Assembly: GCA_900314905.1 (NCBI GenBank)
Contig: OMXA01000004.1
Span: 16,316-80,315 of the forward strand
Direction of reading: 5' to 3'
DNA: 64,000 nucleotides
Source of the DNA: an uncultured Erysipelotrichaceae bacterium
GTDB taxonomy: Bacteria > Bacillota_I > Bacilli_A > Erysipelotrichales > Erysipelotrichaceae
Of this stretch, positions 11,305 to 13,718 are shown in pieces; the first letter of the stretch is position 1, and every line of letters begins with the position of its first letter. A program made the position numbers and the translations under genes. The notes under the pieces were generated by a model. That model did no database searches. It had not been told where the DNA came from and saw only the letters and a program-made list of their open reading frames with translations.

Positions 11305-12675
11305 CTAAACTGGAATATGAAGCACCGCCGTGGAGATTGAAAAGTAGACCAGCAGCGAAATCGCATCGATGATCGTCGTCAGCATCGGCGAAGCAACCAC
11401 CGCCGGATCCAGACCGAGCCTTGAGACGACCAGCACAAGCGTCGCAGCGATGCACTTGGAGAAGAACACCGCACAGATAATCGTCATGCAGACGGCAAAT
11501 GCCACTGCACTGCTGACTCCGTCCAGGAGCATGCATTTGGCAAAGTTTGCTGCGGCAAGCGTGATTCCGCAGAGCAATGCCACCCGCATCTCCTTGAAGA
11601 CGACTTTCCAGTAATCGCTGAAATGCACTTCATCCAGCGACAATGCACGAACGACTTCCACCGAAGCCTGGGAACCTGCATTTCCGCCGGTATCCATCAG
11701 CATCGGAATATAGGACGACAGCACGATATGAGCACTCAATGCAGTCTCGAAGCTCGTGATGATCTTGCCGGTGAAGGTCGCAGAAATCATCAGCAGCATC
11801 AGCCAGGGAACCCGTTTCTTCCACGTTTCGAACACCCCGGTCTTCAGATACGGCTTCTCTGTGTCGCTCGGGACGATGCCGGCCATCTTCTCGAGGTCTT
11901 CGGTCGTCTCCTCTTCCATGATGTCCATGACATCATCGACCGTGATGATGCCGACCATCCGGTTCTCCCGATCCACGACCGGCATCGAAGTCAGATCATA
12001 CTTCTTGAACTGCCGGGCAACTTTCTCCTGGTCAGTATTCGTATTGACGGAAATGACATCCTCTTCCATGATGTCTTCAATCGGCTGCTCTGGCTTTGCC
12101 AGAACCAGCGACCGCAGGGACACCATACCCAGAAGCAGACGCTTTTCGTTGAGCACATAGCACGTATTGACCGTCTCGGAGTCCATCCCGATCGAACGGA
12201 TCCGGTCCAGTGCCTGCGCAACATCCATCGAAAGCTTCAGATCCACGAATTCGACCGTCATCACCGATCCGGCAGAATCATCCGGATACTGAAGCAGATG
12301 ATTGATGTCATTCCGGGTTTCCGGCTTGGCATTGGCAAGCAGCTTCTTCACGACACTGGCGGGCATCTCCTCCAATAGATCTGCCGCATCATCGGCATAC
12401 AGGTTATCGATGATGGTTCCTGCTTCCTTCTCGGAAAGCGAGGTGATGATATACTGCTGACTGTCCTGCTCAAGCAGGGAAAAGACATCTGCAGCGAGTT
12501 CTTTGGGAAACAGACGGAACATCTTCAGCATGTCTTCGTCTTCCATCTGCTCCAGCATCGCTGCCAGGTCTGCTTCATTCATATCCTGCGCCCGCCCGCG
12601 CAGAGCTGCATACTGCTTGTTTTTCAGAAGTGAACGGAACAGTTCAAGTTCCTTTTTCTCTTCCAGTTCATCCAT
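11305..12675 (-). CDS. mgtE: Magnesium transporter MgtE
   Basis: MgtE_N plus CBS pair (DSAGSVMTVEFV, GIITVDDVMD) and TM motifs MDTGGNAGSQ, DPAVVASPMLTTIID. Confidence 0.97.
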   Translation of the reverse strand: MDELEEKKELELFRSLLKNKQYAALRGRAQDMNEADLAAMLEQMEDEDMLKMFRLFPKELAADVFSLLEQDSQQYIITSLSEKEAGTIIDNLYADDAADLLEEMPASVVKKLLANAKPETRNDINHLLQYPDDSAGSVMTVEFVDLKLSMDVAQALDRIRSIGMDSETVNTCYVLNEKRLLLGMVSLRSLVLAKPEQPIEDIMEEDVISVNTNTDQEKVARQFKKYDLTSMPVVDRENRMVGIITVDDVMDIMEEETTEDLEKMAGIVPSDTEKPYLKTGVFETWKKRVPWLMLLMISATFTGKIITSFETALSAHIVLSSYIPMLMDTGGNAGSQASVEVVRALSLDEVHFSDYWKVVFKEMRVALLCGITLAAANFAKCMLLDGVSSAVAFAVCMTIICAVFFSKCIAATLVLVVSRLGLDPAVVASPMLTTIIDAISLLVYFSISTAVLHIPV

Positions 12676-12743
12676 GGCATATTTCCTCCAGACTGTGGTT
12701 TCATGAACGTTCGCAACGGAATCGGACTAGGATCTGTACTCAT
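12624..12743 (-). CDS. Putative proline-rich leader peptide (uORF) overlapping the mgtE start
   Basis: SD GGGAGGTGG precedes ATG 12743. Translation is MSTDPSPIPLRTFMKPQSGGNMPWMNWKRKRNLNCSVHF* (39 aa), out of frame with mgtE. The N-terminus resembles enterobacterial MgtL (MEPDPTPLP...). Confidence 0.6.
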   Translation of the reverse strand: MSTDPSPIPLRTFMKPQSGGNMPWMNWKRKRNLNCSVHF

Positions 12744-12774
12744 GAAAACCACCTCCCTTCGGATGCCTTCTTAA

Positions 12775-12804
12775 ATTTTAATTTTTCCGGTATCGGGAAG
12801 TCAA
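12775..12804 (-). promoter_or_regulatory. SigA-type promoter of the mgtE leader
   Basis: TTGACT (12804-12799)-18 bp-TAAAAT (12780-12775). Confidence 0.6.
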
Positions 12805-12809
12805 CACAG

Positions 12810-12833
12810 AAAAAAAGGGGGCTCCCCTTTTCT
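12810..12833 (-). terminator. Terminator after the YitT-family gene
   Basis: AAAAGGGG-agc-CCCCTTTT followed by a T run, directly after the stop codon. Confidence 0.65.
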
Positions 12834-13718
12834 TCACTCCAATGGTTTCTGATAGTAATTGCCGATGATCTTCTCGACGGAATACATCGTGATGAACGCA
12901 TGCGGATCGGCCGTATGGATCATCTCGATGACCTGCTTGACCTGATAGGTATTCAGCGTGATCAGAAGGAGCCAGTGCGGCTTATCCGTGAATCCGCCTT
13001 CACATGGAATCTTCGTGATGCCATGGCGGCAGGTATGGAATACTGCAGAGCATACCTCATCCGGCATATTCGTCACAACTTTAAGCTCCGTGGAACGATA
13101 GCGCTGATGCATCGTATTGACCATCTGCGTCGAGACGAACTGGAAGATGATCGAATACAGCGCCCGATTCCAGCCGAAGAGGTATCCCGCAATTGCGAGA
13201 ACTGCCGCATTGCCCACCAAAATATAGTTCCATGTAGGCTGGTTGAGCTTCTGCGACAAGAAGATCGCAATGAAGTCTGTTCCGCCGGAACTGGCATTAT
13301 TCCTTAATGCGATGCCGATCGCAAACCCGTTGATGACGCCCCCGAACACGGAGATGAGCATCGGTTCGCTCGTGATCTCCATCGCCGGGAAAATGCCAGT
13401 GAACAAAGAGGTCAGAGAGAACCAGATCAGCGACAGCAGCACGAACTTATGACCGATCCGTTTCCAGACGAATACCGTCGTGACAATATTCAATAGAAAA
13501 TAGATCGGAGAGAACGAGATATGAAACCTGGTGTAGTTGATCAGAACCTGCGAGATCAGCCGGGCAATGCCGGCATAGCCGCTCGGAAACAGGTTCCCGG
13601 ATTTCACGAACGTATTCATGCCGAAGGAATAGATTGCCGAAGAAAGCACCACCATCACGATATAAAGAAGATCTTTCTTCCCGAAACTTTCAATTACCGA
13701 CTGCTTGGAATCACTCAT
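12834..13718 (-). CDS. YitT family membrane protein (DUF161 + DUF2179)
   Basis: Motifs GNLFPSGYAGIA, NNASSGGTDFIA and a C-terminal HGITKI...DPHAFI segment. Confidence 0.9.
   Translation of the reverse strand: MSDSKQSVIESFGKKDLLYIVMVVLSSAIYSFGMNTFVKSGNLFPSGYAGIARLISQVLINYTRFHISFSPIYFLLNIVTTVFVWKRIGHKFVLLSLIWFSLTSLFTGIFPAMEITSEPMLISVFGGVINGFAIGIALRNNASSGGTDFIAIFLSQKLNQPTWNYILVGNAAVLAIAGYLFGWNRALYSIIFQFVSTQMVNTMHQRYRSTELKVVTNMPDEVCSAVFHTCRHGITKIPCEGGFTDKPHWLLLITLNTYQVKQVIEMIHTADPHAFITMYSVEKIIGNYYQKPLE

Follow-up and report, generated by a model that had tools for sequence, protein, structure and literature searches.

A conserved leader peptide overlapping mgtE in Erysipelotrichaceae: a probable ribosome-based counterpart of the M-box

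The M-box riboswitch is credited with controlling Mg2+ uptake in Firmicutes, and enterobacteria are known to sense Mg2+ through the ribosome by means of a leader peptide (MgtL). How, then, is an mgtE gene controlled in a Firmicute whose mgtE leader holds no M-box? The question is raised by a stretch of 64,000 nucleotides from an uncultured Erysipelotrichaceae bacterium (GenBank assembly GCA_900314905.1, contig OMXA01000004.1, positions 16,316 to 80,315 of the forward strand; hereafter the window), in which a short leader precedes mgtE. A preliminary description of this sequence had seen no recognisable M-box in that leader, and an Rfam scan at E values up to 10 bore this out, returning no M-box, no Mg_sensor and no other credible family. 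What the leader does contain is an open reading frame (the upstream ORF, or uORF) that overlaps mgtE and two nested helices, here called P1 and P0, all of which are conserved among relatives. We propose that it is a cis-acting leader-peptide translational attenuator of mgtE that works through ribosome stalling, with Mg2+ as the likeliest signal, a reading to which we assign a probability of about 0.5. It is probably an undescribed ribosome-based switch that does the job of the M-box, and no description of it was found in Rfam or in the literature that we searched.

The uORF and its coding conservation

In the window, mgtE occupies positions 11305-12675 of the minus strand (ATG at 12675) and encodes a protein of 456 amino acids with MgtE_N, CBS and MgtE domains (Pfam). 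The uORF lies on the same strand at 12624-12743, with its ATG at 12743-12741, 39 codons and a stop at 12624, and its product is MSTDPSPIPLRTFMKPQSGGNMPWMNWKRKRNLNCSVHF, the N-terminus of which reads MSTDPSPIPLRTFMKPQSGGNMPW... (MSTDPSPIPLR...). Its Shine-Dalgarno sequence (SD), GGGAGG at 12752-12757, stands 8 nt 5' of the ATG and is part of a near-invariant GGAGGTG in family alignments; a GTG at 12752 that had been listed as an open reading frame start was dismissed, since it falls inside this SD. The frame crosses the mgtE SD (GGAGGA, 12684-12689) and the mgtE AUG out of frame and terminates 52 nt within mgtE. The strong SD, the ATG at 12743 and the 39-residue out-of-frame uORF had all been named in the preliminary description, and each is in place on the minus strand.

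To follow these features through relatives, mgtE loci were gathered from 40 related genomes and from 80 named loci of public genomes, giving about 60 distinct leaders. The uORF starts were located by the signature of the 5' arm of P1 alone, so that the presence or position of a stop codon played no part in the choice. The uORF frame proved to be free of stops from codon 13 up to and including the mgtE AUG in 57/57 distinct leaders; over the same span, the third frame is open in 15/57 and that of mgtE in 7/57. Across the family, the uORF stops 14-59 nt inside mgtE. Between close pairs, differences are distributed over the three codon positions as 45/31/68, and of the codons that differ, a fraction of 0.36 is synonymous when read in the uORF frame, compared with 0.23 and 0.03 for the other two. 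The alignment consensus has its variable sites at wobble spacing (TCn GAn ... CCn GTn CCn), and the uORF frame alone shows an enrichment of Ser (17.5%), Pro (9.7%) and Asp (8.4%). On these comparisons, the uORF is under coding selection.

What is conserved in the peptide is an acidic/proline core of the form [S/T]-D-x(1-2)-[V/I/A/P]-P-[L/G]-[C/R]. Erysipelotrichaceae peptides carry it as ...S-D-Q-V-P-L-C, S-S-V-P-I-N-L-C or Q-G-P-I-P-L-C, the Lachnospiraceae-type peptide reads M-E-R-G-T-S-D-N-P-A-P-G-R-S, the Oscillospiraceae-type M-T-R-S-D-S-D-N-P-R-S-R-L-R, and that of a further group ...S-T-D-N-P-L-P-R-S. In the window the core corresponds to uORF codons 4-11 (D-P-S-P-I-P-L-R, 12711-12734, minus strand), which are consistent with the family pattern and which, from the peptide comparison and the geometry described below, we propose as the stall site. 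The preliminary description had pointed to a DPxPxP motif in the same D4-P5-x-P7-x-P9 register as in MgtL. That register is indeed present in the window, and the peptide is conserved in relatives, while the exact register is confined to Stecheria (leaders L001 and L002) and is no family-wide feature.

A programmed frameshift fusing the uORF to mgtE was rejected, since the offset between the two frames differs among leaders (+1 in 24, +2 in 34). One Lachnospiraceae leader (L085) carries an insertion of about 55 nt between the 3' arm of P1 and the mgtE SD, across which its uORF frame is still open (58 codons).

Helices P1 and P0

The preliminary description had also reported an inverted repeat joining the uORF start region to sequence just 5' of the mgtE SD. 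This repeat, which we call P1, is present, and it covaries across relatives. Its 5' arm, GUGGUUUUCAUGA (12740-12752, minus strand), includes the uORF start codon, and its 3' arm, UCAUGAAACCAC (12695-12706), is made up of uORF codons 13-16; together they form 12 pairs with one bulged U, around a perfect 8-nt core (12740-12747 with 12699-12706). The mgtE SD begins 5 nt past the last base of the 3' arm. Throughout the family, the tail of the uORF SD and the AUG are paired with uORF codons ~13-19, and the mgtE SD starts at most 9 nt past the end of the paired region. On an alignment of the leaders (A1), 89% of the cells of P1 are paired, against 35-56% when the partner is slid, and compensatory changes occur at three pairs (AU/GU/GC, UA/AU/CG and CG/AU/UA). 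Among 26 diverged leaders, the P1 arms bind their own partners with -14.3 kcal/mol and permuted partners with -10.3 kcal/mol (P<5e-5; 0 of 20,000 permutations reach the observed value).

The single-stem picture given in the preliminary description turns out to be incomplete, as it missed an outer helix, P0, that also covaries. In the window, duplex energies and the minimum free energy (MFE) structure place the 5' arm of P0, GGCAUCC, at 12761-12767 on the minus strand, at the 5' end of the predicted leader; its 3' arm (12676-12686) consists of the GGA of the mgtE SD (12686-12684) together with the UGCC (12679-12676) that immediately precedes the mgtE AUG, and the pairing is worth -10.2 kcal/mol. 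Across the family, P0 joins the 7-12 nt directly 5' of the uORF SD to the spacer that separates the SD of mgtE from its AUG, and often to the AUG itself. The arms are wholly different between clades (GACAUGA / UCAUGUC; GGCAGGAA / UUCCUGCC; UUCCAUGGCAA / UUGCUAUGGAA; CGUAAUUC / GAAUUGCG), and in the same 26 leaders and number of permutations they bind their own partners with -11.3 kcal/mol against -7.2 kcal/mol for permuted ones (P<5e-5, with no permutation reaching the observed value). Within the Lachnospiraceae-type clade, P0 is 96.9% paired, shows two compensatory pairs and takes in the mgtE AUG.

Both helices are found in the MFE structure of 58/58 leaders (mean z -2.8). The leader thus has the form of a two-part hairpin, in which P1 buries the uORF start codon and P0 buries the mgtE spacer and start region. 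The apical loop of 35-50 nt encodes the conserved N-terminus of the leader peptide, and the internal loop that separates P0 from P1 brings the two SDs opposite one another in all clades. The purine-rich stretches that face each other in this loop are GAAGGGAGG and ..GGAGGA, at 12751-12760 and 12684-12694 of the minus strand in the window. The last proline of the apical loop is found 13-22 nt (median 17) before the 3' arm of P1, whereas the length of the loop ranges from 11 to 20 codons; since the distance to the arm is held while the loop varies, the motif is positioned relative to the helix and not to the start codon. In the window, this proline (12719-12717) lies 13 nt 5' of the arm.

RNAalifold found no pairs in the raw MAFFT alignment A1, owing to differences between clades in loop length and in the register of P0, and it was replaced by the comparison of duplex energies for own and permuted partners and by pair counts on the named structures. 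As P0 has no single column register across clades, it was also left out of the covariance model used for searches (R1), which comprises P1 only and ends at the mgtE ATG.

Distribution and alternation with the M-box

Wherever the MgtE is at least ~55% identical and a leader is present, the leaders share one layout: a -10 box, a short 5' segment, a strong SD (AAGGAGGTGRTTTT), an ATG, a loop of 11-20 codons, the complement of the SD tail and ATG, the mgtE SD and the mgtE AUG. The carriers are Erysipelotrichaceae (metagenome-assembled genomes, MAGs, labelled Solobacterium, Bulleidia and Galactobacillus), a second family of Erysipelotrichales, and MAGs labelled Lachnospiraceae, Oscillospiraceae/Ruminococcaceae, Saccharofermentans and Clostridiales. 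The MgtE of the window itself is 98% identical to that of Stecheria intestinalis. Firmicute-type mgtE leaders were also seen in four 'cleanbin' MAGs (L055, L069, L075 and L083) labelled Lachnospiraceae, Bacteroidaceae, Succinivibrio or Anaerovibrio, the first of them with an Erysipelotrichaceae-type peptide; these labels look unreliable, or the bins look mixed.

Of 301 sampled Erysipelotrichales genomes, 55, from 20 of 101 genera, have a single match each to model R1, and the 30 best matches there all lie directly before an MgtE gene whose product is 54-100% identical to that of the window. In 399 sampled genomes of the window's own phylum there was no match outside Erysipelotrichales. The element is rare in Clostridia: 399 sampled genomes gave five matches before mgtE, four of them new and the fifth in the genome on which the sample was centred; these mgtE-adjacent matches reach E values of ~3e-4. 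Weak matches (E 9e-5 to 1e-3) adjoining unrelated Clostridia genes lack the uORF features and were rejected as false. Among the matches inspected, mgtE is the sole target gene, and the element never precedes proline, efp or resistance genes. Judged from these searches, the element travels with one mgtE clade, and its scattered occurrence in two classes suggests joint movement of leader and gene.

A second mgtE clade of the same genus, with ~50-54% identity, lacks the element. In one congener (G004), a canonical M-box (93 bits) stands directly before an mgtE of the ~53%-identity clade (L021 2946-3106, the same locus as L112; G004:C84:11363-11523), so that the M-box and the uORF leader alternate before mgtE within a single genus. 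The M-box itself is absent from the window's genome and from 37 of the 41 genomes searched (that of the window and those of its 40 relatives); the same search matched the control genomes and four relatives. In the other three of these (G014, G025 and G033), the M-boxes precede genes that resemble, by eye, mgtA P-type ATPases. The window's genome holds a second, distant MgtE paralogue (G000:C73:7495-8808, 24% identity), and a Clostridiales-1 RNA (RF01699) is located near mgtE in two Lachnospiraceae loci without the uORF leader (L061 3874-4004 and L096 3651-3807).

The surroundings of the leader suggest that it begins a transcript of its own. The gene upstream of mgtE, of the YitT/DUF2179 type (Pfam), lies on the minus strand and ends at 12834, and it is followed at 12809-12835 by a terminator-like hairpin, an inverted repeat with a T-run, which by its position marks the predicted mgtE leader as the start of a separate transcript. 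This hairpin is bordered by both an A-run and a T-run (GAAAAAAAGGGG / CCCCTTTTCTTC), so termination could be possible in both directions. The order YitT-mgtE is repeated in many Erysipelotrichaceae loci. A promoter-like site, TTGACT-18-TAAAAT (12775-12804, minus strand, 10/12 matches), is available for mgtE, and in relatives a -10 box occurs at equal spacing from the uORF SD. Assuming that transcription starts about 7 nt past the -10 box, the start would fall at ~12768 and the leader would be ~95 nt long. Between the uORF and mgtE, no terminator-like site was found on the coding strand.

Proposed action, rival explanations and meaning

These features can be read as an attenuator of the kind known from erm genes. 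During transcription, the ribosome-binding site (RBS) of the uORF would be free until the 3' arm of P1 has been made, allowing a first ribosome to load. If translation runs smoothly, this ribosome would pass the mgtE RBS out of frame and leave the message 14-59 nt inside mgtE, whereupon P1 and P0 would re-close behind it and mgtE would be off. If instead the acidic/proline core (...D-x-P-x-P-[L/G]-[R/C]) slows or arrests the ribosome, the 3' arm of P1 would come to lie under its leading edge. A ribosome covers about 13-15 nt downstream of the first nucleotide of its P site, and the spacing of 13-22 nt between the last proline and the arm is compatible with this footprint: with its P site on the conserved proline codon, or on one of the two codons after it, a stalled ribosome would extend over the 5' portion of the arm. 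With P1 blocked, P0 alone would have to close a loop of ~100 nt, for which it should be too weak, and the mgtE SD and AUG would open for translation. Stalling on the uORF is thus what we infer from the position of the core.

The signal would be a low cytoplasmic Mg2+ concentration, at which short acidic/proline nascent chains may become hard to elongate, as they do for MgtL. We favour Mg2+ because mgtE is the sole target, because the element and the M-box alternate within one genus, and by analogy with the elongation failure of MgtL-type EPDP sequences at low Mg2+. Translation of N-terminal motifs rich in D, E and P, such as EPDP in MgtL, aborts more often at low Mg2+, which turns mgtA on (bioRxiv 10.1101/2021.02.02.429294).

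Several points weigh against this reading. The density criterion used in that work, at least 4 of 6 residues being D, E or P (bioRxiv 10.1101/2021.02.02.429294), is reached in 6 of 58 leaders, DPSPIP of the window included, and most have 2-3 of 6. The core is absent from three leaders (L009, L013 and L078), two of which have no proline in the loop at all. Drop-off of the MgtL type, as opposed to a lasting stall, would let the hairpin re-close, so the MgtL mechanism would not be transferable unchanged and a real arrest would be required. The leader of the window folds no more stably than shuffled sequences (z 0.17, and -0.1 in a second run), the weakest result among the 58, and its P0 is weak at about -10 kcal/mol; the evidence for a fold above chance therefore comes from the relatives. 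Finally, the invariant read-through of the mgtE start by the uORF would be predicted at least as well by positive translational coupling.

In such a coupling model, mgtE would be translated only when a ribosome on the uORF unwinds P0. The regulated step would be access to the uORF start buried in P1, with P1 and P0 firmer at high Mg2+ so that mgtE goes up as Mg2+ falls, and the peptide would play a minor or speed-tuning part. Bacterial uORFs have been described both to couple and to occlude translation (PMC13285730). A uORF that crosses the mgtE SD and AUG in 57/57 cases, with its stop 14-59 nt further on, is what unwinding of the helix or reinitiation needs, and P1 hides the uORF AUG in every leader, so that both RBSs are closed in the ground state. 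What coupling leaves unexplained is the conservation of the loop at the peptide level and the fixed distance between the proline core and the 3' arm in loops of varying length. Simple A/U-rich helices would also be poor sensors of millimolar changes in Mg2+ compared with the cooperative M-box, and out-of-frame stops 14-59 nt past the AUG are an unusual geometry for efficient reinitiation. We consider coupling with sensing at the RNA level unlikely. The same stalling attenuator could, alternatively, answer to general translation capacity, such as the supply of proline or Pro-tRNA, EF-P or ribosome-targeting antibiotics, with Mg2+ import being raised to stabilise ribosomes. The core is centred on proline (P-G, P-L and x-P-x-P contexts), as this would predict, and the Oscillospiraceae-type peptides (MTRSDSDNPRSRLR/C; L072-L077, L088, L091 and L095) contain R-S-R-L-R; its similarity to the +x+ motifs on which ribosomes with a bound macrolide arrest may hint at a response to translation inhibitors. 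Salmonella mgtL, too, responds to proline limitation and to EF-P (PMC6460261 and PMC3641672). A signal of this kind sits badly, however, with an element that precedes mgtE alone, with no case before a proline, efp or resistance gene, and that alternates there with the Mg2+-specific M-box within one genus, and we regard it as improbable.

MgtR and MgtS are enterobacterial small proteins that act on Mg2+ transporters, and the uORF could similarly encode a trans-acting small protein, for instance a partner or regulator of MgtE, with the hairpins merely setting its level; a strong SD and a conserved open frame are what one would expect of such a gene. Yet conservation is limited to the ~12 N-terminal residues of the uORF; what follows them is set by the RNA arms, by the SD of mgtE and by the mgtE overlap, which falls in one or the other of two frames (34 leaders against 24), and the peptide is hydrophilic, varies in length from 26 to 47 amino acids and has neither a membrane segment nor a Pfam match, which makes this very improbable. 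That the uORF is a functionless chance frame beside an ordinary hairpin would fit the fold of the window taken alone, which is no more stable than shuffles; it is contradicted by the 57/57 open frames, the codon-periodic variation, the two covarying helices and the single, mgtE-adjacent copy per genome, and we give it next to no credence.

If the leader is a stalling-based attenuator, as we prefer, it would be MgtL-like in its probable signal and erm-like in its action, and probably a member of neither group. The mgtA leader of Salmonella and E. coli (Rfam Mg_sensor) likewise places a short leader peptide with an acidic/proline N-terminus 5' of a Mg2+ importer gene, there too the progress of the ribosome on the peptide decides the RNA structure, and the window shares the D4-P5-x-P7-x-P9 register with it. 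The element has no sequence or structure homology to that leader (no Rfam Mg_sensor match), and its target is the MgtE channel, whereas that of MgtL is the P-type ATPase MgtA. MgtL acts on transcription elongation via alternative stem-loops and, according to IRD work, abortive translation; in the element the helices bury two RBSs, the uORF overlaps the main gene, a lasting stall would be needed and the family core is not EPDP. Because P0 hides the mgtE RBS, the predicted device is translational and not a copy of the transcription-attenuating mgtA leader. The preliminary description had proposed a translation-speed Mg2+ sensor outside Proteobacteria, either convergent with MgtL or shared. A leader-peptide sensor outside Proteobacteria is still the best reading, given the conservation of the uORF, the covariation of the stem and the fact that the element takes the place of the M-box before mgtE, provided that it is not understood as attenuation of the mgtA type. 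As to its origin, the lack of Mg_sensor homology makes convergence far more likely than shared descent.

The leader peptides of erm, cat and cml genes (ErmCL and ErmBL, for example) offer the closer parallel in mechanism, with a leader ORF that has its own SD, a downstream RBS sequestered in a helix and a ribosome whose arrest at a defined leader codon blocks the helix and turns translation on, as we propose here. They respond to ribosome-bound antibiotics, control resistance genes and have leader ORFs that end before the regulated start, whereas in the element the start of the leader ORF is itself sequestered, the ORF continues past the start of the regulated gene and a metal ion is the likely signal. 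A self-sequestered uORF that overlaps the regulated gene is an architecture absent from both MgtL and the erm leaders. With the M-box (ykoK, RF00380), which precedes mgtE or mgtA in Firmicutes, that of the G004 mgtE included, the element shares its genomic position and presumably its job. The M-box is, however, a protein-independent metal-binding aptamer of ~160 nt with a terminator, while the element, at ~95 nt, has no aptamer and would depend on translation of the uORF; if Mg2+ is its signal, it would be a convergent functional replacement for the riboswitch. Short ORFs are also found in other leaders of Mg2+-homeostasis genes, namely mgtP and mgtM of Salmonella mgtCBR and the E. coli corA leader (PMC3641672 and PMC11552253), which are proteobacterial, work by transcription attenuation and have unrelated sequences. 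Identity with the 'mgtE motif' of Breaker and colleagues was rejected, as that motif is confined to Thioalkalivibrio and is unrelated (PMC11109978).

A conserved leader-peptide switch would explain how mgtE is regulated in the window's genome and in those relatives that lack an M-box. Since the element is small (~95 nt), has separable parts (the upstream AUG, eight core codons and two helices) and is present in cultured strains such as Stecheria intestinalis, the idea is directly testable. If it is right, the element is new in its architecture, which combines a uORF that sequesters its own start and overlaps the main gene with nested helices that close both starts, and the family has spread along with mgtE among gut and rumen Erysipelotrichales and Clostridia. 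Sensing of Mg2+ through the difficulty of translating an acidic/proline peptide would then have evolved independently in Gram-positive gut bacteria. Beyond this, we put forward tentatively, at somewhat less than even odds, that acidic/proline leader peptides which read ribosome performance are a general and repeatedly invented control of Mg2+ importers across phyla, of which the element would be a Firmicute version, with the ribosome and not an aptamer as the sensor of Mg2+.

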